Positions 35,692 to 58,683 of a stretch of DNA of 64,000 nt are shown here, one piece after another. Every line of letters begins with the position of its first letter. The first letter of the stretch is position 1. The position numbers and the translations under genes were made by a program. The notes beneath the pieces are model-generated. The model had not been told where the DNA came from. It searched no databases and saw only the letters and a list, made by a program, of their open reading frames with translations. The stretch is from Azolla caroliniana (taxonomy: Eukaryota > Plantae > Polypodiophyta), in contig JBHGNT010000002.1 of assembly GCA_043228905.1 (NCBI GenBank), positions 16,926,001-16,990,000 on the forward strand, in the 5' to 3' direction.

Positions 35692-36715
35692 TAAGATTGC
35701 TTAAAGTGTGCGGCACTTCATCGGGGGTTGTTTGGGGTGGACTCAAGTTTAGATCTTATTTGTATGTCTAAACATAAGTAGTGATATAGTTTTAGAAGAA
35801 TAGAAAAGTGAGGGCGTGGGTGGGGTTAGGGGAGTGTAGCTTGTTGAAGATATCAAAAGTATTTAAACCTAATCAAAGTTTTTAGAACATATTAAAGATC
35901 ATTGGGACAACTTAAGTTATTAGACACCAATAAAGTATTATTAAAACACCAATATAGAGTATTATTACAACGGGACCACACGCTTAGATGAAAGGGAGTT
36001 GTTTAAACACATGCTTAAGCAAACACTTAAAAGAAAGATTGTTATAAAAATAAATAAAAATAAAAATAGAAAAGAGAGATTGAGATTAAAAAATGATTAT
36101 GGTTAAGAAGGGATTATGATTAAGGGGGAAGGGGTTGCTAAAACAAAGTACTTAAATGAATGTTTAAACAAATACTTAGATAAGAAAACACTTGGGCAAA
36201 CACTTAACGCAAGGTTATGATTAAAAGAGAAGGGAGGGATTATGGTTAAAGAAAAGGGGTCATGGCTAAGAAGAGAATGATTATGATTAAGAGAGGAGAA
36301 TACTTAAACAAATGTTTAAACAAAAAGTTAAACCTAAAAATGATTGAACAAGTACTTCAAAAAAAAGGGGTTAAACAAGTACGTAATAAAAATGATTATT
36401 AAACAAGTACTTAATAGAAAATGATTAAATAAATACTTAAGAACTTAAGACAAAAAAAAATTGATAAAAAAGTGATTAAACAAGTACTTAATAAAAATTG
36501 ATTAAATAAGTACTTAAGAACTTAAGACAAAAAATTAGATAAGAGCAACACATAGAAGGAAAGAAAGTTTTACTATCATAAGGCAACGAAGGCAAATGCA
36601 TTTCGCCTCGATGGAGGCTCTTCAGTGCCTGATGTACAAATGATCAATGGGTCTATGATATTGTTATAAGCCTACTAGGTTGCTCTTTTTATAGGGAGAG
36701 GGAGGAGAGTCCTTT
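35692..36715 (-). repeat. PLE pseudo-LTR, inverted copy
   Basis: Reverse complement of 43168-44103 with substitutions and indels. Confidence 0.92.
36590..36630 (-). ncRNA. Minimal type I hammerhead ribozyme with intact core
   Basis: AGGCA-CUGAAGA-GCCUC(CAUC)GAGGC-GAAA-UGCA-UU-UGCCU: 5-bp stem I, 5-bp stem II, palindromic minimal stem III. Confidence 0.85.
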
Positions 36716-37327
36716 CCAAACACCGCAACTACTCTACTACAAACGCCACATCGATGATGCCATAGGAGTTTGGGAAGGCTCCCCCGATATGCTTCACACC
36801 TTCTTACACCAATACGGCGTGCCTCTACAACAACACATCCGTATTGAATCAACAACCTCCCCTAAAGAGATCACCATCTTGGACGTCATCTTCTTCAAAG
36901 GCCCATACTTTAAAGAATTTGGCATCCTCGACACCGCATGCCACCAAAAACCTCTCAATGCCTACATGTAACTCCCGTGGAAATCCTCGCACCCCATAGC
37001 ACACAAAAAGGCTTCATCACGGGAGAACTAAAACGGTATGCTATCCGAGAGAGCTCGGAAAATGGCTACATGGAACTACGCAAAAAGTTCTACGACCACC
37101 TAAGAGCTAGGGGCTACCCGTCAAAGTTCCTACTCAAGTGTTTTTCGACTGTCCCCTACTCCATACGAAACCAACTACTCTCTAACCAACCCAACAACAA
37201 AAAACCTCCACCCATTGTTTTTAAGTTTTGTTACTCCCCATGTATCAAAAAACTCCAAATCGGAGCGCTCGTGAGAAACAAACTTAAACCCCTTCTAGGA
37301 CAACCACAATACAGTTCCCTTACACCC
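36716..37327 (+). pseudogene. PLE RT C-terminal half and thumb (continues at 43000-43071 after the Gypsy insertion)
   Basis: HIDD at the YxDD position; stop and frameshift near 36970-36995; frame restored across the CACCC TSD. Confidence 0.88.
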
Positions 37328-37757
37328 TGTCAGGAATAGTACTAAAACAGAGATGGAATTAGTACTAAGAAGAGTAGTACTATTAGTACTAAGAGGACGG
37401 GACTGCGTAAGATTCCCGAGAGAGAGGAAGTGAGAAGAGGAGAGAGAGAGAGAAAATAGGATGATGACAGCAGCTCTTATATTATATGAAAGATAAGTAC
37501 AAATCGACTAAGAGGCTTAAGACTGGTGTTGAACCAATTTGGTTCAACATAATGCTTAGTGCCTTCTTTTATAGTGTTCTCAGGAATAATCCTGAAGCTT
37601 CTAGAATGTTCCAGAGAAATCTGGAATATACATTACTTTCTTATAATAAAACATAAATGAAAATAATATTCTATGAATTACAATAGATGGTGAGATGGTT
37701 AAGAGCTCGACCCATATACCATAAGGTCATGGGTTCGAGTCTTGCCATCTCATGACA
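37328..37757 (-). repeat. 3' LTR of the chromovirus
   Basis: TGTCAGG...ATGACA; matches 42565-42994. Confidence 0.95.
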
Positions 37758-37768
37758 CTATCTCCCCC

Positions 37769-40700
37769 TTAAAGACGACGAGTGGAACGAGTCAGCGCTA
37801 CTTGCGGACCGGGTTTGTCCGGATACTTTCGGTGGAAATCAGCAAGAAGATCTTGTGCATTGGCAACATTTTCGACGGGTTCCCAAGTACGTTCGCTCGG
37901 ACTATAACCGAGCCAATCGACCAAGTAATAGAGTTTGTTGCGAACAAGTTTGGAATCGAGGATGGCAGCAACTTCATACTCTGGGCCGGCGTCCAACTCC
38001 AGTGGGGGCGGCGGTGGTGTCACACGATCGGGAATGGTGTTTGCTTTATAAGGTTCAAGAAGAGAACAATGGAAAACCGGATGTATCTGAAGCTGCGGAG
38101 GGAGATCAAGGCGGAAGGTGACATCATTAATCTTCCCCGTAATACGGAAAGGACCGAGTCGTCGATAATCCAACTTGTCGCACGGTCGAGTCGTCTTGAT
38201 GTGACGACGTAAGAGCCATACTCGATCTCCGATGGCAAAAGAGGAGGGAATCCGATGACGATCCGCATAAGTCTTCTGTGTGTGTTGAGCATGACGAAGG
38301 TGAGTAGAGAGATCCATCTGGATCTTGCGTAGCCTCTCCAAATGATCCTCGGCACGAGGGTTGGTAGGTAGCTCCGGAGTGTCGATCACCGACCAGCGAG
38401 GATGGAAACCGGTATAAGCGAAAAATGGGGAGACCCGAGTCGAGGAGTGAATAGCATTATTATACGCAAACTCCGCAAAGTGGAGAATCTCGGCCCAATC
38501 GTCCTGTTGATAACTCAGGAAACACCGGAGATATTGCTCCAGCGTTTGGTTTGTTCGTTCCGCCTGTCCGTCGGTCTGAGGATGGTAGCCGGAGGAGAGG
38601 TTGCAGGAGACCTTGAGCATCTTGAAGAGATGCTGCCAAAATTTGGAGACAAATTGCGGGCCTCGGTCACTGATAATACTGTCTGGGAGGCCATGATGCC
38701 GAAAAACCTCACGCATAACAAGAGCGGCGGTTTCCTCGCTAGTGATGGCTTTAGTACATGGCACAAAATGTGCCATCTTCGTATATCGATCGACGACGGT
38801 TAGGATAGCATCGAACCCTTTCGAGACCGGCAGATCTGTGATAAAATCAAGACAAATAGACTGCCATGGCTTACTTGGAATTGGTAAAGGTTCCAACAAG
38901 CCATATGGACGGTGTCGTGGCATCTTTGCTCGGCAGCAAGCATCACAGGTCCGAACGTAGTCGTCGACAAAACGGCGCATGTGGGGCCACCAAAAAGATC
39001 GCTGCACTAGCTCCAACGTCTTAGTACTACCGAAATGTCCCGCCGTATGGGTGTCGTGACAATGTTGGACAATTTGAAGGCGACAGGAGCAATCGGGGAC
39101 ATATACGCGCTTTTTAAAGAATAACAAACCATCATGATATTCGAATTGTCGGTAGTCAATACCTGGTTGTTGAGACTGAGAACAGGATGCCCGAGAAGTA
39201 TCAATGTGCGCCAGGATGTCTTGAGCAAAACTATCCGTCTTCAAGGTTGCACGTATGTCATCGGTAATCCGTGAATCCATCGGGGTGTGAAAAATCCGCG
39301 TCGTGTGCAATCGTGTTGGTCCCAAGATTACTTGCTTTTGATTATCAAATGTTGCTTCACCAGGACGAGGTGCAAGATATGAACGTCGTGATAGTGCATC
39401 TGCTTTTCCTTGCTGCTTCCCCGGTCGATATGTGATTTTGAAGTCGAAACGCGTGAGGAATTGCGCCCACCGAGCTTGCCGTCGATTTAGTACACGAGCG
39501 TTCTGAAAATAAGCAAGATTTTTATGATCGCTGAAGACAATGACCTGATGTGGAGAGCCCTCTAAGAAATGCCGCCATTGTACAAATGAATCCACGATGG
39601 CTAATAACTCCTTGTCATGTATTTCGTAGTTGATTTCTGCGACATCGAATTTGCGCGAATGGAAAGCCACCGGATGCAACTCTTCTTTATCACCTTGTTG
39701 AGAAAGGATGCTACCGAGGGCGAAATCTGATGCGTCGGCCTCCATGATGAATGGTTTGCTTGTATCCACATGAGCTAGAATCGGTGCTGATGTAAAGGCT
39801 TTCTTAAGATGCCGAAAAGCCATATCTGCTTCAATGGACCAAAGAAATGCTTGGCCCTTCTTTGTAAGTTGTGTGAGAGGTAAAATAATCTTCGAGTAAT
39901 CCTGTATAAACTTACGGTAGAAGTTAGCAAAACCTAGAAAACATTGTACATCTCGTACCGACCGTGGAATTTGCCACTCTAGTACAGTTTGGATCTTAGC
40001 TGGATCCATGGCGATGCCCTTTGAGGAGATGACGTAGCCTAGAAATTCCACTTGCTTGCAGTCAAAGCTACATTTTTCTAGCTTGGCATAAAGACCATTC
40101 TCGCGGAGTCGCTTTAGTACTAATAGTACATGAGAGTCGTGCTCTTCCTGGGTCTTCGAATAAATCAACAGATCATCCAGATAAATGATCAAACAGATAT
40201 CCAAGAGGTCTCTGAATATATCATTTGCCATGTGTTGGAAGACTGCGGGTGCATTGGTTAGGCCAAACGGCATAACAGTATACTCAAAATGCCCATACCG
40301 CGTGCGAAAAGCGGTCTTCCACTCATCTCCCGGTCGGATCCGCACGAGATTATACGCTCCGCGTAGGTCGATTTTAGTAAAAAACTTGGCACCATTAACT
40401 CGCTCTAAAAGACTTGATATAAGAGGAAGTGCATACCTATTCCGGATGGTGACTTTATTTAATCCGCGGTAATCAACGACAAGACGAAGTGAGCCATCTT
40501 TCTTCTTGACAAAGAAGATGGGTGCACCGGCCGGAGATTTCGAATGACGGATGAACCCGCTTGCCAAGTTCTCCTCTATGTAGGCTCGAAGGACTTCTAA
40601 CTCGGTGGGTGACAGGTTGTAAATTGGTCCCCATGGTGGCTCGGTTCCTGGTTGTAAATCGATGGGACAGTCATAGGGACGGTGATGAGGAAGGGTACCG

Positions 40701-41341
40701 GCTTTTACCTTGTCAAATACATCGGCATAAGGATGATATTTTGCCGGAAGTTGTACTGAGGAGTCCTTCTTAGTAGTGCTGGAAGGATGTACTGATATGG
40801 AAAATAGGAACATTGCCTCCTTGGGTCCTTCTTCGCGTAGTTGATGGAGTGAAATGGTCGAAACTCGGCGAGTTGATTCTTGGGGTGGTCGATATCGGAC
40901 TTCTCTTGTTCTCCAATCTATGGCTGGATTATGTAACTCAAGCCAAGGTAATCCTAGGACAATGGGATGCTCTGGACTACTAATTATATTAAATGATATT
41001 ATACACACAAAACTACCTAGGACAACTTGAATGGGTTCTGATTCTTCTACAATATTCCCGGAAGCAATGGGACGACCATCAATGACCACTACAGATGCGA
41101 GACAAGGAAGTTTTCTTAAGGATATCTGAGAAGCTTGGGCAAAATTTCGATCCATGAAACAGGAATTAGCTCCGGAATCTAAAAGTGCTAGGACGGGTAC
41201 TGGGGGAGTACTTTTAGTACTAACAATGACTTGGGCTAGGAACACATTGCTAACTTGCTTGGAAGGAATGGAACCACTAATGGGCTGTACAGATCTAGGG
41301 CTGCTGTCCAACCAAATGGCTCCTATTTTGGCTGGACTCAA
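37769..41341 (-). CDS. Chromovirus Pol (PR-RT-RNaseH-IN-chromodomain), probably made as Gag-Pol by -1 frameshift
   Basis: LLDSGA, YLDD, ADASDFALG, HCH...CDAC, DFITDLP, GQAERTNQ, GPF, EYEVAAILDSK..YYLVDWLGY..TWEP. Confidence 0.96.
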   Translation of the reverse strand: MSPAKIGAIWLDSSPRSVQPISGSIPSKQVSNVFLAQVIVSTKSTPPVPVLALLDSGANSCFMDRNFAQASQISLRKLPCLASVVVIDGRPIASGNIVEESEPIQVVLGSFVCIISFNIISSPEHPIVLGLPWLELHNPAIDWRTREVRYRPPQESTRRVSTISLHQLREEGPKEAMFLFSISVHPSSTTKKDSSVQLPAKYHPYADVFDKVKAGTLPHHRPYDCPIDLQPGTEPPWGPIYNLSPTELEVLRAYIEENLASGFIRHSKSPAGAPIFFVKKKDGSLRLVVDYRGLNKVTIRNRYALPLISSLLERVNGAKFFTKIDLRGAYNLVRIRPGDEWKTAFRTRYGHFEYTVMPFGLTNAPAVFQHMANDIFRDLLDICLIIYLDDLLIYSKTQEEHDSHVLLVLKRLRENGLYAKLEKCSFDCKQVEFLGYVISSKGIAMDPAKIQTVLEWQIPRSVRDVQCFLGFANFYRKFIQDYSKIILPLTQLTKKGQAFLWSIEADMAFRHLKKAFTSAPILAHVDTSKPFIMEADASDFALGSILSQQGDKEELHPVAFHSRKFDVAEINYEIHDKELLAIVDSFVQWRHFLEGSPHQVIVFSDHKNLAYFQNARVLNRRQARWAQFLTRFDFKITYRPGKQQGKADALSRRSYLAPRPGEATFDNQKQVILGPTRLHTTRIFHTPMDSRITDDIRATLKTDSFAQDILAHIDTSRASCSQSQQPGIDYRQFEYHDGLLFFKKRVYVPDCSCRLQIVQHCHDTHTAGHFGSTKTLELVQRSFWWPHMRRFVDDYVRTCDACCRAKMPRHRPYGLLEPLPIPSKPWQSICLDFITDLPVSKGFDAILTVVDRYTKMAHFVPCTKAITSEETAALVMREVFRHHGLPDSIISDRGPQFVSKFWQHLFKMLKVSCNLSSGYHPQTDGQAERTNQTLEQYLRCFLSYQQDDWAEILHFAEFAYNNAIHSSTRVSPFFAYTGFHPRWSVIDTPELPTNPRAEDHLERLRKIQMDLSTHLRHAQHTQKTYADRHRIPSSFAIGDRVWLLRRHIKTTRPCDKLDYRRLGPFRITGKINDVTFRLDLPPQLQIHPVFHCSLLEPYKANTIPDRVTPPPPPLELDAGPEYEVAAILDSKLVRNKLYYLVDWLGYSPSERTWEPVENVANAQDLLADFHRKYPDKPGPQVALTRSTRRL

Positions 41342-42495
41342 TCGTTTAACTCTTCATCTAATTGACTAAGGATTTCAAATTTATTTGAGATACTTGGGCT
41401 ATTAGTACTATGAATACTATCTGACACTCTATTAGTACTATTACTACTATCAGACACTCCGAAGGGAAGAATTGACTCAGGTTTAGTACAGGCGACAATT
41501 TGATTTACCTGTCTTCTTGGCCTATGGGGACAATTGATGGCGATATGTCCTGGTCCACCGCAATAAAGGCATAATCGATTGGCACATCGTCGTTGCTTTT
41601 CTTCTTCCGATAACGGGCCGCGTCGACGCATGGTATCGATCTCCATCGGTGTTGAAGTATTTGCTTGAGGTATGTCTCGTGCAAACGGTTTAGCCGCGAC
41701 TGCGGCGTAAGTGGGCTCTGGCCTAGAGCGTGGTATCTGTAATTGACGTTCTGAACGCCGTTCAAAAAGGCGGTTGTCACATCGAACTGCTCGACTGATT
41801 GCCTCCGTAAGAGACTTTGGTTCTTCGGGGAAAGTTAGAAGTAGATCTTTGACATCGTTTCGCAAGCCATAGCGAAACTGCTCCATTAGTGCTTGATCAT
41901 CCCAGGGTATATCTGAAGCAAGTAGGCGGAAATCCGCCGCGTAGGCAGAGGCTGGACGATCGCCTTGACGCAATCGCCGGATCTTGTTGATCGCCGTCCT
42001 GATGCTGTCGGTGTCTCCAAAGCAGGCTTTAAACTCACCAATAAAATCTTCAAAGTTATTAAGCAAGGGCGATTGTTTTTCTAGAAGCGGAGCGAACCAT
42101 GCCAAGGCTGAGCCGCTAAGTAGCGTGCCTATTAGGCCGACTCGAGATGCATCAGTGGGATATCGGGAAGGATGCATCTGGATGACTAAGCGTACCTGAT
42201 TAAGGAATCCCCGAAATTGCGAACGCGTTCCATCAAATTTCACAGGAAGTCCAATCTTGGGCTCTTTATGAAATCCTTGGGGACTGGATCCTTGTTGTTG
42301 CAACGCTGCTTCGAGTTGTTGTACCCGTAACGCTAACTCCCCATGTTGTTGTTGCGTTTGTTGTTTTTCTAGAGCGATTTGTTGCAGATCCCCTATCAGC
42401 CGTTGGTTTTCTTGTTCCAAGGCAACAAACTTTTCTTTTAGGCACTGTAGCTCGGAGAAAACGGATTGGTATTCTTGGGCGCTAACAGTAGCCAT
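41338..42495 (-). CDS. Chromovirus Gag
   Basis: PVKFDGTRSQFRGF, LRQG..AYAADFR, PMEID, and CLYCGGPGHIAINC zinc knuckle. Confidence 0.95.
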   Translation of the reverse strand: MATVSAQEYQSVFSELQCLKEKFVALEQENQRLIGDLQQIALEKQQTQQQHGELALRVQQLEAALQQQGSSPQGFHKEPKIGLPVKFDGTRSQFRGFLNQVRLVIQMHPSRYPTDASRVGLIGTLLSGSALAWFAPLLEKQSPLLNNFEDFIGEFKACFGDTDSIRTAINKIRRLRQGDRPASAYAADFRLLASDIPWDDQALMEQFRYGLRNDVKDLLLTFPEEPKSLTEAISRAVRCDNRLFERRSERQLQIPRSRPEPTYAAVAAKPFARDIPQANTSTPMEIDTMRRRGPLSEEEKQRRCANRLCLYCGGPGHIAINCPHRPRRQVNQIVACTKPESILPFGVSDSSNSTNRVSDSIHSTNSPSISNKFEILSQLDEELND

Positions 42496-42564
42496 AGTAT
42501 AGGGGAAAGGGTAGGAGGATGAGGGAGAGTGACAAGTAGGCTAGAGGAAGAAATTGGTTCAAAC

Positions 42565-42994
42565 TGTCAGGAATAGTACTAAAACAGAGATGGAATTAGT
42601 ACTAAGAAGAGTAGTACTATTAGTACTAAGAGGACGGGACTGCGTAAGATTCCCGAGAGAGAGGAAGTGAGAAGAGGAGAGAGAGAGAGAAAATAGGATG
42701 ATGACAGCAGCTCTTATATTATATGAAAGATAAGTACAAATCGACTAAGAGGCTTAAGACTGGTGTTGAACCAATTTGGTTCAACATAATGCTTAGTGCC
42801 TTCTTTTATAGTGTTCTCAGGAATAATCCTGAAGCTTCTAGAATGTTCCAGAGAAATCTGGAATATACATTACTTTCTTATAATAAAACATAAATGAAAA
42901 TAATATTCTATGAATTACAATAGATGGTGAGATGGTTAAGAGCTCGACCCATATACCATAAGGTCATGGGTTCGAGTCTTGCCATCTCATGACA
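42565..42994 (-). repeat. 5' LTR of the chromovirus
   Basis: Matches 37328-37757; TATAAAA on the minus strand at 42804-42810. Confidence 0.95.
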
Positions 42995-43167
42995 CACCCC
43001 CTCTCACGTGTTGGCTAAATGGTAAACAACTAAGAAACCACCTAGTACACTCATCCTTTCCCCCCACCTAATGTTTTGTGTACTCTCACCCCTCTTAACC
43101 CCCACCTAAAGTCTTGTGTACACTCTTTTACCTTTCCTTTGTACACACTTTTGTATGTCCCACATAC

Positions 43168-44103
43168 AAAGGACTCTCCTCCCTCTCCCGATATAAAGAG
43201 CAACCTAGTAGACTTAATTTTCATCATGTGTACATCGGGCACTAAAGAGCCTCCATCGAGGCGAAATGCATTTGTCAATCGTTGCCTTATGATAGTAAAA
43301 CTTTCTTTCCTTCTATGTGTTGCTCTTATCTAATTTTTTGTCTTAAGTTCTTAAGTACTTATTTAATCAATTTTTATTAAGTACTTGTTTAATCACTTTT
43401 TTGTCAAATTTTTTTGTCTTAAGTTTTTAAATATTTATTTAATCATTTTTTATTAAGTACTTGTTTAACCCCTTTTTTTAAGTACTTGTTCAATCATTTT
43501 TTTATCTAACTTTTTGTTTAAACATTTGTTCAAGTATTCTCCTCTCTTAATCATAATCATTCTCTTCTTAGCCATGACCCCTTTTCTTTAATCATAATCC
43601 CTCCCTTCTCTTTTAATCATAACCTTGCTTTAAGTGTTTTCCCAAGTGTTTTCTTATCTAAGTATTTGTTTAAACATTCATTTAAGTACTTTGTTTTAGC
43701 AACCCCTTCTCCCTTAATCATAATCCCTTCTTAACCATAATCATTTTTTAATCTCAATCTTTTTTTTAAAAAATAATAATCTTTCTTTTAAGTGTTTGTT
43801 TAAGTGTGTATTTAAGCAACTCCCTTTCATCTAAGCGTGTGGTCCCATTTTAATAATACTCTATTGGTGTCTAATAACTTAAGTTATCCCAATGATCTTT
43901 AATATGTTCTAAAAACTTTGATTAGGTTTAAATACTTTTGATATCTTCAACAAGCTACACTCCCCTAACCCCCACCCATGCCCTCACTTTTCTATTCCCC
44001 TAGAACTATATCACTACTTAGGTTTAGACATACAAATAAGATCTAAACTTGAGTCCACCCCAAACAACCCCCGATGAAGTGCCGCTCACTTTAAGCAATC
44101 TTA
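43168..44103 (+). repeat. PLE pseudo-LTR / 3' UTR, sense copy
   Basis: Starts ~100 bp after the RT stop; T-rich with AAGTACTT and TTAATCATAA subrepeats; inverted match to 35692-36715. Confidence 0.92.
43238..43276 (+). ncRNA. Hammerhead ribozyme copy with G5A core mutation, probably inactive
   Basis: GGCA-CUAAAGA-GCCUC(CAUC)GAGGC-GAAA-UGCA-UU-UGUC. Confidence 0.75.
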
Positions 44104-44941: not shown

Positions 44942-45345
44942 TGTTGAGAAGCAAGCTCAACAAAGGTATGTGATGCTTATTGAGAAATAAGCTATAGTAG
45001 CTATTAGCTAATTAGGTACTAGTGGACATAAAGGTGAAACAACTATTTAGCTACTGACAGCTAATTAACTATTGGCAACTAATTAGCTGCATATATAAGT
45101 CACTTATGTACTTAGGTAAAAAGTAAGTTGTAGTAAGTAGAAGAGTGAGAGTAGTGTAGAGAGTAAGAACAGACAAACAAAAAACAGACGAGAGCGAGTT
45201 GAGCTCTGCGTGTAATGAAGTAGAAGTTTTTTGGATTGTGCAAAGGTAAGTCTCCTTCCCCTTCCTGTTTCTGTCTTGAGCACTAAACGATCCAGCACAT
45301 CACAATCCGTTCTGCACACAGAAGAGTCGTAGCGCCTTCGTAACA
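44942..45345 (+). repeat. 3' LTR of Copia E
   Basis: Follows the PPT; followed by TSD TGACT. Confidence 0.93.
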
Positions 45346-46189
45346 TGACTTGGGGCATGCATCAAGCCGTAAGATTCTTCTTGACTCAACAAACTAGACG
45401 TTCTTGGCTGGGTATCACGAAGCCTTTCAACTATTCCATATAAATTTCCTCCTCTAGATCACCATGGAGGAAGGCCATCTTGACATCTAAATCTTTAGCG
45501 ACTACAACGTTGAGCAAAAGTCGACGCCATATTCTGGTCCGAAACCCTTTGCAACCAATCTGGGCTTTGAATTTAGGACTTGCCGAATTAGATGTCTCTT
45601 TTAGGCGCTAGACCCACTTGCACAGAAGAGCACGTGAGTTTTCTGGCAATTCGACGAAGTCCCATGTCTAATTATGCCAAATGGAGTTCATTTCGGACTC
45701 CATAGCTAGATGCCAATTGGCCGAATAGACACATGCTGACGATTCTTCATACGACGTCGGCTCATCGACATCCATGAAAAAGAGTCCAAAAGAGTATCTC
45801 TCTGGAGGCCAAGACAATCGTTCGGATCTGCGTGGGATGACTAAGCTCACTAGATCATCACTGATGATCATTTCCTCGGTTATTGTACCCGATTCACCAT
45901 GTGGAGAGCTCCTTAACATTCTCTCTAAGATAACTTGTTTAGGAGTATTGACAACTACCATATTGTGTTCCATGCAGGCCACTTGCCAGGTGGCCACTCT
46001 CGTGTTTTAGATTGGGCCATCGAGAAGAGTTGGAACATTCGGAAAGGATACTCTTCTAACTTCAGTTGGCCTTTTCGGGTGCCTTGTGCATTGTTGACTC
46101 ATTGAAAACAACGTTTAGACGACTTGTCTGTTTTTAGGATCCCAGAGTCGGGAGCCAAAGTTGTCATCTGGTTCGTAACCAAGGAAAAT

Positions 46190-46297
46190 GCATTTCCAAA
46201 AGTCATACAAGGCATTAACGTACCCTTGTAGCTCATATTCTGACTTTGAGAGTAAAACTCCATCGTTTGCATGGAGCAAGAGAGTACCCCTTAGGAC
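46190..46297 (-). mobile_element. LINE RT fragment (downstream half), split by Copia F
   Basis: LLLHANDGVLLSKSEYELQGYVNAL, a degenerate LLYADD domain; joins 59583-59770 across the AGGAC TSD. Confidence 0.65.
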
Positions 46298-48517
46298 TGT
46301 TGGCATAAAAGGCTGATTCCTTCCAACTTGTATCCGTCCGAGTGTGAACTTGTCCACATAGTTAGGGCTTAGTATATAAGCAATAACCTAACGTTGTAAA
46401 GGCGAACAAAAACACTTTGTATCAAGTCTCTGAGTGAGAGAGAGAGAGAACATAATAAAGCTTTCCATTAAAGCTCGTTTTTGTGTAAGTCTCTGCCTTC
46501 CTCCCTTTCTGTGTTGTTTTCGGAGTCAGCAAATAGGTTGTCATACGCTTCCGCATACGCACACACCTACCAACTTTCCACAACTGGTATCAAAGCAACC
46601 TTGCTATTCGGCGGCAACAGACAACAGAAGAAGCTCAAAAGAAAAAGACGAGGTTAGTAAAAATCTCACTTTTCATAGAAGAATATGGCTTCAACATCCG
46701 AAACAGGAGTTGAAATCAAAAAGTTCGATGGCAAAAAATTTGCACTTTGGAAGGAGATGATGTAGGATGTTTTGATCATCAGAAGACAAGTCGAAGCTAT
46801 TCGACACAGCGAAAAACCTGCTTCGATGACAGCCGAAGAGTGGAAATCGATGGACGAAATTGCATGCTCCACCATCTGAATGCATCTGGCCGAAAACATC
46901 TACTTCAGCATGGCAAAAGAGACGACAATGTTCTCACTGTGGGAAAAGTTACAAGCCATGCACGAGAAGTCATCATCTTCGAAACTGATTTTGATGAAAC
47001 AACTTTTCAATATAAAGATGAGAGAAACCAATCCGGCTACCTCCCACATCAACACCTTCAGCTGGGTGTTGTCAGAACTCTCTTCACAAGGGATGAACTT
47101 CAAAGAAGAAGTGAAAGCCCTTGCCCTCTTATCGAACTTGCCGGCGAGTTGTGAGGTTTTGTGCACGACATACGCCAATAGTCGACCGATCCTAAATTTG
47201 GATGAGATGATCGGCCAAGTCCTCACCGAGGACATTCGGAGAAAATCGATGGGACTTACCATCGATGAATTGGCAGAAGCCCATCACTCGACCGAGTCGT
47301 TCGACCGACCAAGTCGTACAAGAGAACAAGCCGATAGAACTAGTAGGAATACCAACCGATCAAAAACGAGGGGAGACTAACAGCTGTTGAAGTCAAGAAC
47401 GGGCCGATCAAGCGAATTCTACACACACTACAGAAAAATTGGCCACAATGTTTTCAACTGTTGGTCAATTAAGAGGAAAGAGAGTGGTCGGCAATCCGAG
47501 CGGAATCGAGGACAACCCGACTCGGACCACTCTCCAGTCGGCAACCAAATCAACGTTGTTGAGTCCCGATCAGGAGAAGTTCTGTCCTTAGAGCATTCAG
47601 TGATCGGTGAAGTCCTCTACAGTGCACAGGATGCACACACGTGGCTACTGGATTCCGGTGCCACATTCCATGTGACCCCCAAAATTGAATGGTTTTCAGA
47701 CTATTCAACCGATGCCAGCGGCATAGTTCGTCTAGGCAACAGGCAAGAGTGCAGAATTGCAGGGACCAGAGAGGTTCCCATATGATTGCCAAATGGCAAC
47801 ACAATAACCCTGCACCGAGTTCGGCATGTACTTGATCTGAAAAGGAGTTTGGTCTTCATCGGCATGCTAGCCGAAGACGGGTACAAAACGACTCTAAGTG
47901 AGTCAGTATGGATGATCAACCGAGGAAACCTGAAGATAGGAAGTGGGCACAAGTACAACAACCTGTATCCATTAATGGCGATCAATCCAGAATGGGCCGT
48001 GAACTTAGCCGAAAAGACCGACCCAAACTTATGGCATGGCTGACTCATTCACATGTCTCAAGCCGGACTTGATCTGCTGATGGCGGTAGGCTACATCCCG
48101 AAACTCCAAGCAAAGACGAACTTCTGTGAGCATTGTCAATATGGGAAACAGACCCGAAGTCCACACACTCTCCAGTACGGGATGGTACGACAACCCCTAG
48201 AGCTCGTGCACACATATATATGTGGGCCCATTCCAGAGCGATCACTAGGAGGCTCCCGGTACTTCATCACCTTTGTAGATGACTGTACATGGAAGGTCTG
48301 GGCCTACTCGATCAGGTCCAAAGACGACGCGCTCGAGGTCTTCACTTGGTGGATATCTGAAGTGGAGAACTAGTCGGGACACAAAGTGAAGACACTGACA
48401 TCCGACAATGGAGGTGAGTACACCTCCAGAGCCTTCAAACAGTACCTGTCCAACAAAGGGATCTGACATCAAAAGACCGTTCCCTACACACCCATGCAAA
48501 ATGGAGTGGCAGAACGG

Positions 48518-49224
48518 TGTCGTGCCCTTCGGCTCCGGATCGTTGCATGAGTCGGGTGGGAACCGCCGAGGTTTTGGACTAGGAGGAAGAGGAATACAAC
48601 TTAAGGCTAGTTATGAATAATAGGAAGAGAAGTAAGATAGTAATCTCGTGAATCCCACGAGTTTAGTGTATTTTAAAACAATATTTAGATTTTAAGAGTA
48701 ATTTAGATGGCAAAATTCGTGAATCCCACGAATATATTAGATTGATCAAAAACTTGTATATTAATCAACAACCATATACATATTTTTCTCCTCCTTATAT
48801 AAAGATGGAAGAGGCTAAGCATGGCTTCATGCTTTTTCACCTAAAGTGTCCATGCACACTAAATGTGCATGTGATGCTTTGTCATTTTCTAAATATAGGG
48901 CTCGTGCACGCTAGATGTGCGTGAGTCACTTTTAATGTCACGTGTAAATAAAATATTCACACTCTAAAGAAGACATGATTTTTACCTTTTAATAAAGGTA
49001 TGTGTAAATAAAGGTCTTATATGTATTAAATCTATATTTATAACACTAAAGATAAGTTATTACAATGGTAAAGTTGGGGTTTATCTATGTGGAGGTGCAT
49101 GGTTTGAATCCTGCCCTATGCATGTGATAAATTCTTTTGATATATTATTTATTTATTTATATGTATCTAAATTCGGATATATTATTTTATGGTTTTCACG
49201 TAGTGTGTGGAATACACTACGACA
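48518..49224 (-). repeat. 3' LTR of the Trp-primed Gypsy
   Basis: TGTCGTG...ACGACA; direct repeat of 54895-55601. Confidence 0.95.
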
Positions 49225-52200
49225 CTCGCCCCCTCCGAACCCGCACATCCTCCGGTATGTGCCAAAGTTCTCGATTCCCCATATCCGTCTTCACCCAAAG
49301 CTTCCTCCGATTCTCCCCTTATGTCGACTATGAGTTGTAATTCACGTTCTTCGCTTCCCGCATCCCCGTGGTCTTCGTCTGATTGCTCCTCGTAGTCGGC
49401 CTTGGCTTGGATCACATAGGGTTTGTCGTCGGTCCGCTTCTTGAAAATCTTCACCCGCTTCCCGGCTATAGGCACTCGTAGTATTGTTCCATCCAACTCG
49501 GACAGTCGGTACGTTCCGTTGTCAAAGACTTTCCGAACCTCGTATGGCCCGAACCACCTTTTCGCGAATTTCCGCATCGTTGTATGTTGATGGTCCAAAC
49601 TACTGTCATAGACGATCACCCAGTCTCCTTCTTCGATCCTCCTCGGTCGTAGTCGGTGCTTTGTGTCGAACCGGCTTTTGTTCCTTAATCGTGCTTCTTG
49701 TTGTCGGCGTATTGCTTCCGCTATGTCTGCCGGTCTTCCCTCTAGTTGTCGTATCCGGACCGCTAGTAGTTCTTCCCAGCTCATCTCTTCCTTCCACGGT
49801 AGCACTGTCCATGTCGCGATCGCGGTTTCCGTCGGCATTACCGGTGCTTGTCCGGTCATGAGTTCTGCCGGCATGTAACCGGTTATGGAGCTATGTGTCG
49901 TCCGATCCGCCCATAGTGCATACGGAAGCATCTGCGGCCAGTCCTTCACCTTTCCATCGCATGCCTTCGCAAGTGCTTTTACGATCGGACTATGTCCTCG
50001 TTCGATTTTCCCGTTGGCCTCCGGATTGTATGCCGTTGTCAGCGATAACCGAACTCCGTGTTTGGCGAAGAATCCCCTAGCTTTGTCCGAGTCGAGTTCT
50101 CCTCGGTCTGCAATCACTTGTCCTACGCACCCGTACCTGCAAAATACTTCCTCCAAAAGAAATTGGCATACCGCGGAACACGTTTTCCTCTGAAGCGCTC
50201 GACCTTCTACTTGATTCGTGAGATCTTCCCGAGCTAATACCAAGTATTTCTTTTGTCCGATCCCGGTCGGCATGGCCACTATGTCGACCATCCACTTGAA
50301 GTTGATTGTCGGTGAGAATGTCGGATGTAACTCATCTCGATGTCGAACCCCGGAGTAGACTTGACATTTCTCGCAGCTTTCGGTAAACTCCGCGATATCT
50401 TTGTACATTTTCTTCCACCAATATTTTTGCTTGATCTTCACAAATGTTGCCCATGTTCCTCGGTGTTCAGCCCAATCGGATTCGTGAAACTCGGACATTA
50501 TCCGGTTTCGTTGCTCTTTTGTCCCGACTACTCGAAGTGGTATACCATCCGGTCTTTTCGGCGCCCTCCATATTAATCCGTTTTCCAAGAAGAACTTTTG
50601 GACTTGCCTCTTCTTCCTTCGGATCTCGGCTCTTCTTCCTTTATCGTTTGTCGAGTCCTCGGCCTCTTGTAACATCTTTCCGATCATCAAACTTTCTCCC
50701 TCATATTCTTCTTCCCGAAATTCTCGGATTACGTTCACTCGGCATATGTGCTCCGACGCGAAGTAGTCTTCGGAAACTTCTTCATTATCCGATTCGGTTA
50801 TGTTGTCTCCGAACCGAGCCCTTGATAACATATCCGCTACCGCGTTTTCCTTCCCCGAGATGTGTCGAACCTCCGGATTAAGCGACTTGACATATGCAAC
50901 CCACCTTAGCATAGCTACATCTGGTATCGTACAACACCGCATCATCCCGAGTATCGGAAGACAATCCGTCTCGATCACCACTTCGGCTCCGATCAAATAA
51001 TCCCGATCCGATTTTATCGCCGACACGACTCCCCACAGTTCTCTTTTGACTTGTGCATATCCACATTGCCTTTCGTTGAGAACCTTTGCTCCGAATCGGA
51101 TCGGATACCGCGAACCATCCGAGTCGGCTTGATTGATGACCCACCCGATACCGGTTGGACTTGTATCAACCGTTACTATGATCGGTCGGTCGTAGCTCGG
51201 CTTCTTAAGTGCTTCCGCCCTCCGAAGTGTCTTCTTCAATTTCTTCATGGCTTTGGTGTGTTCCGGTTTCCATTCGAATTTCTTACCTTTCCGCAACAAG
51301 TGGTAGAGCGGGTCCGCTATATGTGCATAGTGCGGAATCCATATGTGATAGAATGCACATGCACCGAGAAACCTTCGGACTTCGGATGTTGACTCGTATA
51401 CTTCCTCCATAGCTTGAATCGCATCGATCTTTGTTGGTGACGGTCTTCGGCCGTAGGGCCCACATAGATGTCCGACCACCAATATTTCTTCTTGCCCGAA
51501 TGCCGATTTCTCCCCGGAAAGTGTTAGGTGCACATCTTCTAGCTTTCGCAACACTTTCTCGCAAGCATGAATATGGTCGACCACGAACTTTCGGCATCCC
51601 CGATCATCCATAGTCTCATCTTTTTCTTCGACCGCGCATCCTTTCATCGGAATGTCATCGAGGAACGGCATCGTTATCTCCGGAATGCAGTCTCGAAGCA
51701 CCTTGTTCATCGCGTTCATCATATGAGCAACCGAGTTTGTCGCTCCTTGTGGTAGTGTGCACATTCGGACTAATCCTATCGGTGTTCGCATGGTTGTGAT
51801 GTCTCGGCTCTCCACGGCTAGTTGGAATTGGTCATACCCCGAGTATAGGTCTCCGATGGAGTATATCGCACGACCGGCAAAAGCTTCCGCAAATTCGTCC
51901 ACTATCGGACCGACTCCCGAGTTCCGGATCGTGACCTTATTCACCGGTTGCAAGTCTTGGATAAATCGGAGTGACCCATTCTTCTTCGGAACCGTAAACC
52001 ATCGATTTGAGTACGGAGCAGTTGATGGCTCTAGAATCCCCATCGCCACCTTCTCCTTGAGCAAGTCAATGACTTTCGGAATATGCGCTCGTGGCACCGG
52101 AATCGGCTTCAGATTCCACGGTACATGGTCAATCGTAAAGATCACCATCGGCTCCACTATTCTTGGATCGACGCACCCTATCTCCCTTGATGTAAATGCA

Positions 52201-52679
52201 AACGCTTTGCCGTGTTGCTCCAACATCTCGCGAAACCGTTCTTCTTCTTTCTGAAATAGGAACCCACCTCCACCGATCCGAAGTTTCTTCCGGGTCTCAT
52301 TCGTGAAGGCATGTCCGATATCCACGGACTTCCGAAGTGTCGGATCTCCTGAGACTTCTTTCCTCTTTTGTTCGCTATCGGCGGGTAGTGGTCCCGCGGC
52401 CGGTTTCACCTTCTTCTCCACGGTCTTGTATTTCGTACTTACCATTGCTTCTTCTTTACGGAGCGTATCCGGCTCCATTTTCGCAATGATCTCGTACATC
52501 TCGACCGATTCCACCGGGACTACCCGGTTCCCTTGGCTTTTATCTTCCGCAAGCTCTTCAAGTCGTTGTAGCGTGCTCCCATAGAACACTTCCTCGACTA
52601 TCCCCACGATTTCTTCATCTTCTTTTATTATTGATGCCGACCGCAACTTATCCTCCACTTGTCGGTATCCTTTCTTCAA
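49182..52679 (-). CDS. Gypsy Pol (RT-RNaseH-IN)
   Basis: DLYSGYDQ, LPQGATNS, FLDD, VDTSPTGIG, CEKC, NPEANGKIERGH, GPY motifs; the frame stays open upstream to the slippery site at 52817-52823. Confidence 0.93.
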   Translation of the reverse strand: MKKGYRQVEDKLRSASIIKEDEEIVGIVEEVFYGSTLQRLEELAEDKSQGNRVVPVESVEMYEIIAKMEPDTLRKEEAMVSTKYKTVEKKVKPAAGPLPADSEQKRKEVSGDPTLRKSVDIGHAFTNETRKKLRIGGGGFLFQKEEERFREMLEQHGKAFAFTSREIGCVDPRIVEPMVIFTIDHVPWNLKPIPVPRAHIPKVIDLLKEKVAMGILEPSTAPYSNRWFTVPKKNGSLRFIQDLQPVNKVTIRNSGVGPIVDEFAEAFAGRAIYSIGDLYSGYDQFQLAVESRDITTMRTPIGLVRMCTLPQGATNSVAHMMNAMNKVLRDCIPEITMPFLDDIPMKGCAVEEKDETMDDRGCRKFVVDHIHACEKVLRKLEDVHLTLSGEKSAFGQEEILVVGHLCGPYGRRPSPTKIDAIQAMEEVYESTSEVRRFLGACAFYHIWIPHYAHIADPLYHLLRKGKKFEWKPEHTKAMKKLKKTLRRAEALKKPSYDRPIIVTVDTSPTGIGWVINQADSDGSRYPIRFGAKVLNERQCGYAQVKRELWGVVSAIKSDRDYLIGAEVVIETDCLPILGMMRCCTIPDVAMLRWVAYVKSLNPEVRHISGKENAVADMLSRARFGDNITESDNEEVSEDYFASEHICRVNVIREFREEEYEGESLMIGKMLQEAEDSTNDKGRRAEIRRKKRQVQKFFLENGLIWRAPKRPDGIPLRVVGTKEQRNRIMSEFHESDWAEHRGTWATFVKIKQKYWWKKMYKDIAEFTESCEKCQVYSGVRHRDELHPTFSPTINFKWMVDIVAMPTGIGQKKYLVLAREDLTNQVEGRALQRKTCSAVCQFLLEEVFCRYGCVGQVIADRGELDSDKARGFFAKHGVRLSLTTAYNPEANGKIERGHSPIVKALAKACDGKVKDWPQMLPYALWADRTTHSSITGYMPAELMTGQAPVMPTETAIATWTVLPWKEEMSWEELLAVRIRQLEGRPADIAEAIRRQQEARLRNKSRFDTKHRLRPRRIEEGDWVIVYDSSLDHQHTTMRKFAKRWFGPYEVRKVFDNGTYRLSELDGTILRVPIAGKRVKIFKKRTDDKPYVIQAKADYEEQSDEDHGDAGSEERELQLIVDIRGESEEALGEDGYGESRTLAHTGGCAGSEGASVVVYSTHYVKTIK

Positions 52680-52813
52680 TCCTCCGGTTACGGTCGTGTA
52701 CGTAGATGCCCCATCCGGACCGATTCGTACATGTTTTGCTCTGAGAGTTTTCTTCCTGTGTGGGGTATCAGGGCTTCTCGGACTATCACTTCCCCACTCC
52801 GCAACAGTCCGCT

Positions 52814-54877
52814 TTAAAAATCCATTCTCACTTGGGACAAGAGTTCCCTCTTGTTCCTTTCGTGATTTGCCGGCACCGTTAGGAATTGGACGGATTTCCC
52901 ACCGTTTTGGCTCCGAATTCGTGCAAAAGCCGCACCGCTATCGAGCACCTTCGTCTCCATCCGTGATGCCGTGATAAAGGGTTGGCCGAGGATGACGGAA
53001 TGTGAAACCTCATCTTGCACGAAGAAATTTTGGTCGATCTCGACATCCCCGATCTTCACCGTCACATCCGGACAAGCCGCAAATAGATCTTCCGTTGCTT
53101 TGGTGGCCGCCCGAATCTTCCATCCATGGTTGGTGTTAATAGGCCACTTCCCCTTCCGGTAGAACTCCTTGGACATCAAGTTGATCTCCGATCCGTGATC
53201 AATCAATGCTAGCACGGGTTCTTTGATGTTGCCGATTCGGACCGGAGTCTCCGTAGTCGCACGTGCCCAATGTGGCCTTGTATAGTGGGAGTTCGGAATT
53301 TCGTCCTCCGCTTCGGTGTCGTTCATTAAAACGGTGTTCGCATTCACCCTTGGAGCATTTTCCTCCGTACTTTGTCTTTTTCGCTTCACGAGATCCACGA
53401 GAAGATCGTGGAACTCCTTCTTTGCTATTCCGAGTAGCTCCCGAAGCGAGAAATCTACCCGGCTATCCAAGATTCTTTCCTCGAACACTCTTTTCAAGTC
53501 GGTTTGTTGTTCTATGTCCGAGGCGAGCTTGAATGCCGGAGTCGCCTTTTCTTTTCCCTTACCTCCAGAGTTCCAACTTTCCGGTATCTTCGATGGCCCG
53601 ACCGCATCCTCCGTGCGTCATCGTTTCTCGTCCACATACACCTTATGCAATTGACACAGGGCATATACGCTATTCTTGTCGACAGGGCACTCCCATCCCG
53701 TAGCTTCCCGAACGCCTTCCGCGGTGCTTCGGATCTCGTTGGAGTCGGTTTTCTCGGTGTTTTCTAGAACTTCCGGCCAAAAAGACGTCTTTGCTCTCGA
53801 TGACTCCCCGACACATATTCCCGCGGTTGTCGCATAGTTGCTTCTTGCCGCCAATTCCTCCTCGAGCACCTTCTTCATGCCGCCTTTCCGGAAGTTCGGT
53901 CGGAGTGGCTTCCGAGAGTCCATCGAATGAATCCGGTTTCCCTCGTAGTAGATGAGATCCCGTCGTAGCGCCTCCTTATGCTCGTCGCAATCCCTCCGAT
54001 CGTGTTCGGCGCTATCGCACCATATGCACCGTCGGTCCGTATACTTGGAGCTTGTGGGGCGGTCATCCGACTTCTTCACCATCGCGATCTTCAGATTCTC
54101 CATCTCCTTCAATAGTTGCTCCACCGTAGATGCATCAATCCCCTTCTCGGTTCTAGTCTCTCGAGCCCTCAGTTGATGGTCTTCCAATCCGGTTCTCGGT
54201 TTCGGAATCGGTTCCGAAACCCTCTTTTCCTCGTCGGCAAGCCATTGCCCCCTCTTCGTGTATCGCGCGACGATATCCCGCACGCTTTCCCATGTTTCGG
54301 TGAGGCCGCTCTCCGTGGTCGTGTCCTCCAAGAGCACTTCGAGATCTTTCCGGTCCCGGACGTCCACGGCTCGCAAGAACATAATCACCTTGTCCGGTAC
54401 GAGGATAGCTTGATCTCTCGCGGACAACCTCCCGAACCGGCTTTCGAATGCCGAAAACACATCAATGACCTTCAATCCCTTGTCCGGCGTCTCCACCCAA
54501 TCTTCGAATCCCCTTCACGTCGCCTTGGAGGAATCCTCGATGGCGAACGTCCTCTTTAGCTCTACTTCAAACGCCTCCCATGTCTGATTTTGCTGTCGTA
54601 GCCCATGGATGCTTGCTTGAAGCCTGTCGGTCGCCACCCGGTTGAAGGACGTCACTTGCAGTCCTTCCGATATTCCGCACCGTAGCATCTCCGCCTTGTA
54701 GTCCCGAAGATACCGCGACACGTCTTTCCCGTTGAATTGCCCGTTTCGTTGCACGAGCCGCTCCACTGATGCCGCTATCTCCGACATCGCACGTTGTTCT
54801 TGTAGCATGCGCTCGAACATCATCATCATGTTGCTAGCCTCCGGTTGATTTTCCATCTCCTTGCCACCCGTTTTCAC
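52814..54877 (-). pseudogene. Gypsy Gag-protease ORF with two in-frame TGA stops
   Basis: ORFs 54515-54877, 53618-54496 and 52814-53497 are all in one frame; CIWCDSAEHDRRDC knuckle; ALIDHGSEINLM protease. Confidence 0.88.
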
Positions 54878-54894
54878 GTCGGGTTCACCAACTG

Positions 54895-55601
54895 TGTCGT
54901 GCCCTTCGGCTCCGAATCGTTGCGTGAGTCGGGTGGGAACCGCCGAGGTTTTGGACTAGGAGGAAGAGGAATACAACTTAAGGCTAGTTATGAATAATAG
55001 GAAGAGAAGTAAGATAGTAATCTCGTGAATCCCACGAGTTTAGTGTATTTTAAAACAATATTTAGATTTTAAGAGTAATTTAGATGGCAAAATTCGTGAA
55101 TCCCACGAATATATTAGATTGATCAAAAACTTGTATATTAATCAACAACCATATACATATTTTTCTCCTCCTTATATAAAGATGGAAGAGGCTAAGCATG
55201 GCTTCATGCTTTTTCACCTAAAGTGTCCATGCACACTAAATGTGCATGTGATGCTTTGTCATTTTCTAAATATAGGGCTCGTGCACGCTAGATGTGCATG
55301 AGTCACTTTTAATGTCACGTGTAAATAAAATATTCACACTCTAAAGAATACATGATTTTTACCTTTTAATAAAGGTATGTGTAAATAAAGGTCTTATACG
55401 TATTAAATCTATATTTATAACACTAAAGATAAGTTATTACAATGGTAAAGTTGGGGTTTATCTACGTGGAGGTGCATGGTTCGAATCCTGCCCTATGCAC
55501 GTGATAAATTGTTTTGATATATTATTTATTTATTTATATGTATCTAAATTCGGATATATTATTTTATGGTTTTCACGTAGTGTGTGGAATACACTACGAC
55601 A
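54895..55601 (-). repeat. 5' LTR of the Trp-primed Gypsy
   Basis: Adjacent to the Trp PBS. Confidence 0.95.
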
Positions 55602-56393
55602 ACGGATCAACAAAATGATCCAGGAGAGGGTGACGGTAATGCTTCAGCAAGCCGGACTGAAGCTGGAATTCTACGCAGAAGCATTGCAGACGGTAGTATA
55701 CCTAATAAATCTGGTGCCGTCAAGAGCAATTAGGCTCGAAGTGCCACAGGCACTATGGTCAGGCAAACAACCAACCTACGATAGGATCTATATATTCGGA
55801 TGTGAAGCCTATGCGCTCATCCCCAGGTATAAAAGGACAAAATTGACACCCCATGCAACGAAATGCATATTTCTCGGTTATGGAATCGATGGGGAATTCG
55901 GATACAAGCTATGGGACCATTAGAACCGGAAACTGATCCAGAGCAATGACATAGTCTTCAATGAAGACTCTATCTTCTCTCAGTGGAACAAACAAAAAAC
56001 AGTTGGTAAAAAGGTATCCTTCCAAGATGACAAAGTTGTCGTAGAAGGACCTACTCACTGGGCCAACTCAGAGATTTGACAAACAGTCGAACTTGAACAA
56101 GCTGACAACATACCTGCTAACTCTGAATCGGTAGGAAGTCCATTAGTTGAACTCGAAGACAAATCCATCAATGACAGAGCCAATTCGACAAGAGTCGAAG
56201 CAGGCAAAGTCAACAAGATGCAAGTAGGAAACAGAACCTAGGGGAGGACAACGTGACACCACCGAAATACCGACTTGGGGGCGGGTCACCTAACAAGACT
56301 CCTGACACAAATGGTTCAACAAATACCGATCGCCCAACCGAGTTGATCGAACAATCCGAACCACTTATCTTGGCACCTAGTCTCATAGACATA

Positions 56394-58128: not shown

Positions 58129-58271
58129 AGGTACCTAAGAGGGACCGAAGATACACAACTGACTTTCAGTTTGACAACCTCAACCGAAGTTGAAGGCTAC
58201 ACCAATTCCGACTATGCTAGAAATACAGATAATCGGAAATCGACATCAGGCTATATCTTCACCTATGGTGG

Positions 58272-58683
58272 TGTCACGGACAAGTAGATGAGGCTCAATA
58301 CTAAGAGAGTGAGAGAGAGATCATAGACAAGATAATAAGAAAGAGAGAGAGAAAGTAATCAAGAGAATAAGAACTGAATTATGATTCCGTAACTAGTGTT
58401 GTTCCCCTTGACGAAGGCCAAGGTGAACCCATGTATCTATACATGTTTATGGGCTCTAAATGTAGCCCCATGCAAATACTCATTTTCATGCACAAGCTTC
58501 TAGAATGTTCTAGTTTCTAGAGCTTTCTGGAAGCTTCTAAAATCCTACATGTAGAATAGATAATCTACAATAATCTAGTAAGGTAACATGATTATGTATT
58601 GGATGTATTGGTTAAAACATATCAATTAAATATAGTAGTTCAAGAGTTCGAATCATGAGATGACTGTTGTCATGTCCATGATA
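58272..58683 (-). mobile_element. Solo LTR (Gypsy-type) in the RNase H region of Copia F
   Basis: Termini TGTCACGGAC/GTCCATGATA; TSD GGTGG/AGTGG; removing it restores TYGGGAISW; shares AAGCTTCTAGAATGTTC with the chromovirus LTR, which also gives the orientation. Confidence 0.8.

Follow-up and report, generated by a model that had tools for sequence, protein, structure and literature searches.

The question raised by this locus is why a retrotransposon should carry, at the outer edge of its long terminal repeats (LTRs) and facing away from its own genes, a segment that resembles part of a tRNA gene. The segment lies in a 64-kb stretch of DNA, likely from a fern (hereafter the window), and belongs to an intact Gypsy retrotransposon of the chromovirus type (element A) encoded on the minus strand. 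Element A is 5.67 kb in length and is bounded by a 3' LTR (37328-37757) and a 5' LTR (42565-42994) of 430 bp each, which are 100% identical, and by a 5-bp target site duplication (TSD; CACCC, at 37323-37327 and 42995-42999). The gag (41338-42540, 400 codons) and pol (37769-41353, 1194 codons) are both open and overlap in different frames. Pol includes reverse transcriptase (RT), RNase H, integrase, SH3 and chromodomain regions, with the chromodomain at the integrase C-terminus (Pfam PF00385, E=1.3e-13). The polypurine tract (PPT; 37758-37769, minus strand) directly precedes the end of the 3' LTR at which the tRNA-like segment resides. Element A is enclosed by inverted repeat arms of ~1 kb (window 35692-36715 and 43168-44103) that are 87% alike and are probably those of a terminal inverted repeat (TIR) DNA transposon or foldback element. 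Among named sequences, those closest to an ArfGAP host exon of the window are from Adiantum ferns (60-63% identity), which makes a fern the likely host.

The tRNA-derived module of element A (37681-37757, plus strand) occupies, antisense to the element, the outer edge of U3 in the 3' LTR and is present in identical form at 42918-42994 (plus strand) in the 5' LTR, where it faces the flanking DNA. A preliminary description of this DNA had placed A- and B-box motifs in the module, and both are found: an A-box-like word (37688-37698, plus strand) and a variable loop plus B box (37724-37742, plus strand) that corresponds to tRNA positions 44-62, with G53 at 37733. The geometry also agrees, as T8 (37688) and T54 (37734) are 46 nt apart and tRNA position 72 (37752) is 5 bp from the LTR terminus (37757). 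The duplicate at 42918-42994 and the outward-facing, antisense orientation are likewise borne out, the former by the identity of the two LTRs and the latter by the minus-strand location of gag and pol. The A box of this copy is, by contrast, not a good box: the invariant A14 is replaced by G, the word contributes ~0 bits, and the two-box score of the module (12.1 bits) is within chance expectation (0.75 sites of at least 12 bits per window). Of the family contigs that align at 37694, about half by depth have an A there. Just inside the A box, element A and a relative (L008, below) have a TG-starting word, missing from the relative L005, that was considered as a relic of an older LTR start.

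A true tRNA gene is rejected. ARAGORN identifies no tRNA genes by default and none at thresholds of 80-100% (matches at thresholds of 70% or less occur on both strands and were not used), Rfam gives no tRNA match to the module, and the acceptor stem retains 2/7 pairs. Infernal with a sequence-only tRNA model finds the module at 37719-37747 (E=0.0018), covering model positions 39-67 only, and the match is weaker (E=0.26) with the cloverleaf-structured model. The module is derived from a tRNA and its cloverleaf is lost. The 'anticodon-like' segment of the preliminary description is present, whereas its tRNA-like setting is not, as the segment is located in a long hairpin rather than a cloverleaf. 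Elsewhere in the window, an AT-rich segment (21107-21174, minus strand) reaches 18.6 bits with the cloverleaf-structured model and has no B box; this match is perhaps due to chance.

The module is not a solitary occurrence. A profile of tRNA positions 44-62 was built from 21 non-redundant short tRNAs out of 36 (fetched loci); these are a mix of bacterial-type and eukaryotic-type tRNAs with no plant set, and the 44-62 zone was picked after the modules had been seen. The 5 top profile sites of the window are all antisense at Gypsy LTR starts. Sites of at least 18 bits number 4 in the window against 0.11 expected (200 shuffles), a clear excess over shuffled sequence, and the element A module has the best score of the window (23.4 bits; 0.02 sites of at least 20 bits are expected per shuffled window). 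The LTR heads of the module-bearing families score 10.7-23.4 bits antisense in 8/8 cases and at most 0.7 bits sense (p<=0.001, each head shuffled). With the sequence-only tRNA model, these modules account for 11 of the top 12 matches across the window and three related loci (L005, L007 and L008). The profile scan and sequence-only Infernal thus support the proposal of the preliminary description that tRNA- or SINE-derived sequence was captured into Gypsy LTRs on a fixed side and in a fixed orientation. Signs of a tRNA-derived SINE were sought: no tail or TSD is evident, and no free copy is found among the top sites of the 64 kb.

Modules in three other LTRs of the window had been listed as comparable. 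All three (elements B, C and D) are antisense; C and D, by contrast, are without a consensus A box, D alone is not significant window-wide, and B is no chromovirus and has its B box 123 nt from the LTR end. The module of the B 5' LTR (54895-55601) is at 55428-55515 (plus strand, 18.6 bits) and has an A-box-like word, a B box with G53 at 55479 and a T4 run 33 nt later; its two-box score (18.3 bits) is the best of the window (0.03 expected). The counterpart in the B 3' LTR (48518-49224) is at 49051-49138 (plus strand, 12.7 bits) and has a C56T change. Element C, a decayed chromovirus with a gag 45% identical to that of A, has its module at the LTR start (56394-56475, minus strand; G53 at 56420; 19.1 bits). 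Element D is a solo LTR (58272-58683) that is 79% identical to the LTR of the chromovirus L007. Its decayed module is at the U3 end (58593-58683, plus strand; G53 at 58646; 10.7 bits) and ranks 11th in the window, where 4.9 sites of at least 10 bits are expected. The distance from the LTR start is 27 nt for the C module and 40 nt for that of D. These elements are part of a nested stack (44942-59578) in which a Copia LTR pair (46301-46583 and 59294-59578) encloses B, C and the solo LTR D. Beyond the stack, a long open frame (60005-61630, plus strand) encodes an RRM protein whose middle is rich in glycine and serine and whose tail is acidic and charged.

Elements A and B represent separate lineages. 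The pol of B is 23% identical to that of A and lacks a chromodomain (Pfam), and its named relatives are from Riccia and Adiantum. Element B has a 4-bp TSD (ACGG, NCGN type) and a TGG-type tRNA primer binding site (PBS), for which tRNA-Trp is a putative primer isotype. Element B is like Phygy in its NCGN TSD of 4 bp, tRNA-type PBS and missing chromodomain, while element A is like the Tcn1 chromoviruses in its chromodomain, predicted self-priming, 5-bp TSD and non-seed-plant host (PMC6317226, PMC2864245). A and B are placed by these features, and the parts of the Tcn1 and Phygy descriptions consulted have no tRNA-like LTR module (PMC6317226, PMC2864245).

Further carriers come from a protein-only metagenome scan, in which L005, L007 and L008 are close relatives of A (72, 59 and 75% identity). 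Each carries it at the edge and on the strand seen in A (scores of 19.1, 18.1 and 14.0 bits, respectively). Of the 96 protein-fetched loci, 74 are distant and served as controls, while 19 were left out for little downstream DNA or a partial match. The controls divide into 46 with a recognizable PPT-TG start (a few doubtful), 25 with none and 3 that are too short, and 0/46 of the first group reach 10 bits antisense. A tRNA model search (R1) of the same 46 loci gave no match, with default filters that make it not strictly comparable to the sequence-only scan. Four other repeats of the window (two Copia LTR types, the LTR of element E and repeat G) are likewise free of the module (0/4). In element E (7896-10813), the 3' LTR is preceded not by a purine tract but by a tRNA-3'-end-like word ending in CCA. 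Searches of viral contigs gave no usable relatives (in turn, 1 weak, 3 distant, 0/120 loci with related gag or pol, 0 and 0). In a quick tree that includes unnamed relatives only, the four module-bearing chromoviruses form one group with a support of 80, a value that neither shows nor rejects a single origin of the module in chromoviruses.

The surroundings of the module are those of a likely promoter. From the outer edge inward, the U3 order is antisense B box, antisense A box, AT-rich spacer, heat-shock-like array (in A, D, L005 and L007), TATA and self-priming site. In element A, the array of GAA/TTC repeats is at 42831-42848 (minus strand), inward of the module, and again at 37594-37611 in the other LTR; L005 has 5 overlapping matches, and no such arrays are found in the LTRs of B, C, E or Copia. 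The arrays resemble heat-shock elements and suggest that the chromovirus elements may be heat-inducible. A TATA box (42805-42810, minus strand) belongs to the likely Pol II promoter of element A. The likely 5' end of the element A RNA (42766-42777, minus strand) is complementary to the element's own PBS (42551-42562, minus strand), which is of the self-priming type and has no TGG start. The 12-nt complement of the PBS is 32-33 nt after the TATA in the LTRs of A and L005, and the PBS and its LTR partner are both altered, matchingly, between the two (L005:4488-4499 and 4649-4660). Thus, A and L005 are likely self-priming, as is reported for Tcn1 chromoviruses (PMC6317226).

The orientation of the module places an anti-tRNA sequence directly after the PPT in the genomic RNA, and a role at the RNA level was considered in which this sequence, or a hairpin formed by it, binds a host tRNA or folds and aids strand transfer, circularization, plus-strand priming or packaging. 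A tRNA(Lys3)-like sequence in the U3-R of HIV-1 was reportedly described in 2010 by Piekna-Przybylska. The orientation and genome end of the fern modules are as in the Ty3 3' PBS and this HIV-1 sequence, which likewise are anti-tRNA sequences at the genomic RNA 3' end of autonomous LTR elements (PMC11381356, PMC6468702). Those sequences, however, match the primer tRNA of their own element (PMC11381356, PMC6468702). A and L005 are likely self-priming and would have no tRNA primer to capture, and positions 60-76 of the B module differ from the primer 3' end read off the PBS of B. That the module copies the primer tRNA of its own element is, thus, rejected for B by the mismatch at positions 60-76 and does not apply to self-priming A. 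The sequence past the B box, which would be the pairing partner of a tRNA 3' end, is not conserved.

The hairpin that could serve such an RNA is long and imperfect and overlaps the module (37690-37753). In element A it has a predicted energy of -36.4 kcal/mol (z -6.64) and is strong on both strands (z -6.6 and -5.8), with both arms near-invariant in the family while the upper stem and loop vary. It relies partly on letters at 37693 and 37749 that are absent from most family members. L008 has a weaker version (z -1.9). Outside of the A/L008 clade the fold is not apparent: other families have z values of -0.1 to -1.9 on the module strand, and the L005, C and D modules fold no better than shuffled sequence. 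A miRNA- or MITE-type hairpin is rejected as the common feature, since the fold is confined to this clade, and Rfam miRNA matches to the module region are far under gathering scores. The feature common to the families is the B-box primary sequence, not a fold. The hairpin is missing from L005, C and D, and the RNA-level role is quite unlikely overall.

The B box is also the best preserved part of the module. Residues G53, T54, T55, A58 and C61 are unchanged in 8/8 LTR modules while the T stems are partly broken, a pattern that agrees better with recognition by a protein than with the folding of an RNA. The consensus B box (GTTCRANYC) is found in 6/8 LTR modules and C56T in the other 2/8 (L008 and the B 3' LTR). 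As for the A box, L008 matches the consensus, B and L005 come near it (T10), and A, C, D and L007 have no consensus box. Synonymous sites of the module-bearing chromoviruses are near saturation, as only 45/118 (A-L005) and 28/94 (A-L007) fourfold-degenerate pol sites are identical. In ungapped comparison, tRNA positions 44-62 are identical at 15/19 and 14/19 sites in the same two pairs, versus 6/17 and 4/17 in the anticodon arm and 3/15 and 6/15 on the 3' side. No box-specific conservation is seen between A and L008 (17/19 in the box, 14/15 on the 3' side).

Variation within the family of element A was assessed from contigs aligned to 37600-37770 (171 bp; 1,894 and 2,231 pieces in two runs), with differences counted from 4% in the 1,894-piece run. 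Positions 44-62 vary at 1/19 sites versus 18/55 in the adjoining spacer (p=0.03), where the compared zones were chosen after inspection and the AT-rich spacer is a poor neutral yardstick; the whole module versus spacer (9/55 versus 18/55, p=0.075) is not significant. Segment 37704-37715, which has no promoter motif and pairs with the B box in the hairpin, is as invariant as the box (0/12 variable), and no variation is listed at 37600-37632 either, at the edge of the aligned stretch. Depth in contigs is an approximate measure and is subject to edge effects, such that a variant at 37749 appears in one listing and not the other. Depth over the A box is ~1/10 of that over the B box; thus, most family members differ from the element A copy at the A box, and the loose contig ends shown keep the A-box consensus positions when judged by eye. 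C56T accounts for ~6% of the family depth. The preliminary description had held that its proposal would fall if enrichment were missing or if the boxes decayed like neighboring U3 sequence; as far as the data allow, neither outcome is seen.

A second tRNA-like insertion extends this pattern to coding sequence. In L005, the pol of both chromoviruses has an antisense insertion with A/B boxes in its variable protease-RT linker, which keeps the reading frame (L005:998-1070 and L005:6322-6391, minus strand); its B box is kept and its anticodon arm has diverged. The insertion is absent from element A, and the peptide it encodes is found in 3 of the 120 homologs listed (P0004, P0019 and P0055). Between these orthologous insertions, positions 46-65 are identical at 17/20 sites versus 24/42 in the flanks (p=0.044) and 254/411 fourfold sites (p=0.023). 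One of the copies holds an internal T5 run. The two L005 chromoviruses (87% amino-acid identity) flank a single LTR and represent either a tandem pair or an assembly join.

One account of such inserts is that they are passengers: tRNA or SINE heads would enter by a biased mechanism and hitchhike, and the boxes would look conserved since the donors had them. Consistent with this reading, degenerate A boxes and C56T copies exist, the brand-new insertion of element A (identical LTRs) has a non-consensus A box, and the A-L008 comparison is without a box-specific signal. The likeness of families at universal tRNA positions could also reflect separate captures of SINE heads with boxes already under selection. 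Whether or not the box has a function, at least three captures are envisaged from lineage and position (chromovirus U3, Phygy-like U3 and pol linker), each antisense. Capture may have occurred by insertion of a tRNA or SINE head or by plus-strand synthesis that runs into a mis-annealed tRNA primer; the read-through route alone would yield the antisense orientation and could do so without selection. Contrasts within lineages, however, favor the box (p=0.03 in the family of A and p=0.02-0.04 in the L005 linker), and the module persists across chromoviruses that group in the tree and are near synonymous saturation. The other LTR parts that can be aligned between A and L005 (heat-shock array, TATA and self-priming site) are, moreover, likely functional. 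As the main rival to a retained function, the passenger reading is fairly unlikely. The module is real and recurrent, and it is probably under some constraint.

The function that is favored, tentatively and as somewhat short of an even bet, is that the module is a worn antisense tRNA-derived segment of which the B box is retained as a candidate TFIIIC site, back-to-back with the heat-shock/TATA promoter, where it may help to keep the promoter free of silent chromatin. This site is favored because TFIIIC has a high affinity for B boxes and a low one for A boxes, and because extra TFIIIC (ETC) sites with a B box only are barriers in yeast (PMC12409998). The modules resemble ETC sites and tRNA-gene barriers in that the B box is conserved and the A box is weak or absent; they differ in that ETC sites are fixed loci of yeast and mammals with TFIIIC binding shown, whereas the modules are mobile, of plants and predicted to bind TFIIIC (PMC12409998). 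TFIIIC barrier activity is not established for plants in the portions of the literature examined. TFIIIC would bind the B box as at ETC sites, and, where the A box is good, TFIIIB would be positioned on the AT-rich spacer that separates the module from the heat-shock array. The outward orientation would keep Pol III traffic away from the Pol II promoter, and the benefit would be a barrier or nucleosome-free anchor that is carried to each new insertion. A tRNA-like element that serves a neighboring gene from outside, with conserved A/B boxes, is described upstream of the Leishmania U2 snRNA gene; this trypanosomatid element, by contrast, is at a fixed locus and works for a Pol III snRNA gene rather than for the Pol II promoter of an LTR (PMC4950102). 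Counted against the TFIIIC site are the poor A boxes, the C56T copies, in which TFIIIC binding would be expected to be weaker, the invariant non-promoter hairpin arm and the A-L008 result, and the internal pol copy cannot serve as an edge barrier.

The same boxes could instead be an outward Pol III promoter for a functional RNA that tunes silencing of the element. From the 3' LTR this RNA would be antisense across the PPT and the end of pol, from the 5' LTR it would run into the flank, or it would be a small RNA of the hairpin. Element B comes closest, as a self-contained unit in which an A-like box and a B box are followed 33 nt later by a T4 run, and the A box of L008 is of consensus. AT-rich DNA and a CAA are found upstream, as in plant tRNA genes (PMC11700998); the CAA is, however, at tRNA position +1 rather than -1 to -10, and neither L005 nor L007 has it. 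A defined outward transcript from the chromoviruses is disfavored because there is no conserved terminator: none is found inside their LTRs, and the first T4 is at +136/+104 (A), +61 (L008) or +79 (L007), with none within ~640 nt in L005. The internal T5 run of one pol-linker copy also argues against transcription, and an outward promoter is very unlikely overall. A further suggestion is that the boxes are a mobile landing pad that attracts Pol III-targeting retroelements (Ty3/DGLT-A type) and steers insertions into existing elements. Such targeting is known (PMC5006619, PMC5391098). No insertion, however, is found just upstream of the A box in 6 LTR modules of the window plus 3 in L005, L007 and L008, and loose contig ends do not cluster there among the ends listed, which makes this the least probable of the readings and highly improbable.

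The preliminary description knew of no account of such modules, which is correct in part. Sequence derived from tRNA is published for the LTRs of Helenus/TRIMp3 (Kojima 2024, PMC10886601), which like the elements here have it in both LTRs, with sequence conserved around the A and B boxes; as here, a working tRNA is unlikely, and in that case the sequence inflates tRNA pseudogene counts (PMC10886601). Helenus members are non-autonomous (311-1263 bp), whereas the carriers here are autonomous, 5.7-7.1 kb in length and equipped with a TATA promoter (PMC10886601). In Helenus the tRNA part is sense-oriented (in the plant member Helenus-1_SMo and other LTRs examined) and proposed to be the element's own promoter, whereas here it is antisense in 8/8 modules and at the U3 edge (PMC10886601). 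Helenus is defined as short and without coding capacity, while element A is 5.67 kb with open gag and pol. Because Helenus is non-autonomous and sense-oriented, element A is not a member. 'Not a few' Repbase LTRs are noted to resemble part of a tRNA, with analysis in that paper given to TRIMs (terminal-repeat retrotransposons in miniature) only, as far as its sections consulted go (PMC10886601). Cassandra TRIMs similarly have Pol III gene-derived sequence in plant LTRs, ferns included, and differ from the modules in that this sequence is 5S-derived (A/IE/C boxes), non-autonomous in its carrier and the driver of the element's own transcript (described in PMC10886601). The sections consulted of a fern genome paper (PMC6786969) contain nothing on tRNA-like modules in LTRs. 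Antisense modules in autonomous plant elements were not found described in the open-access literature; thus, what appears new is an antisense tRNA module at the U3 edge of autonomous plant elements, and what was already known is tRNA-derived LTR sequence as such.

PlantRNA 2.0 records >10,000 tRNA-like sequences in Azolla filiculoides, with genome expansion suggested as a possible cause in the part of that account consulted. Since the family of element A is of very high abundance, with 1,894 and 2,231 contig pieces on 171 bp, its modules are a testable candidate source of excess fern tRNA-like sequences and, if the host is Azolla filiculoides or a relative, a testable alternative to genome expansion. 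The broadest form of the proposal is doubtful, if far from negligible: that autonomous Gypsy elements of ferns have, on repeated and independent occasions, domesticated tRNA boxes, each time in reverse, both at the edge of the LTR and in frame in pol, with TFIIIC as a portable anti-silencing barrier beside a heat-shock promoter, and that the thousands of TFIIIC sites so seeded could explain the >10,000 Azolla tRNA-like sequences. Even if the modules are relics, repeated antisense tRNA captures, one of them in frame in pol, would suggest that capture during reverse transcription follows a biased route. If TFIIIC binds the boxes, a selfish element would carry a host chromatin-barrier signal to every site of insertion, a cis-acting anti-silencing device of a kind not found described for plant LTR elements, and the modules would offer a direct test of TFIIIC barriers in plants.
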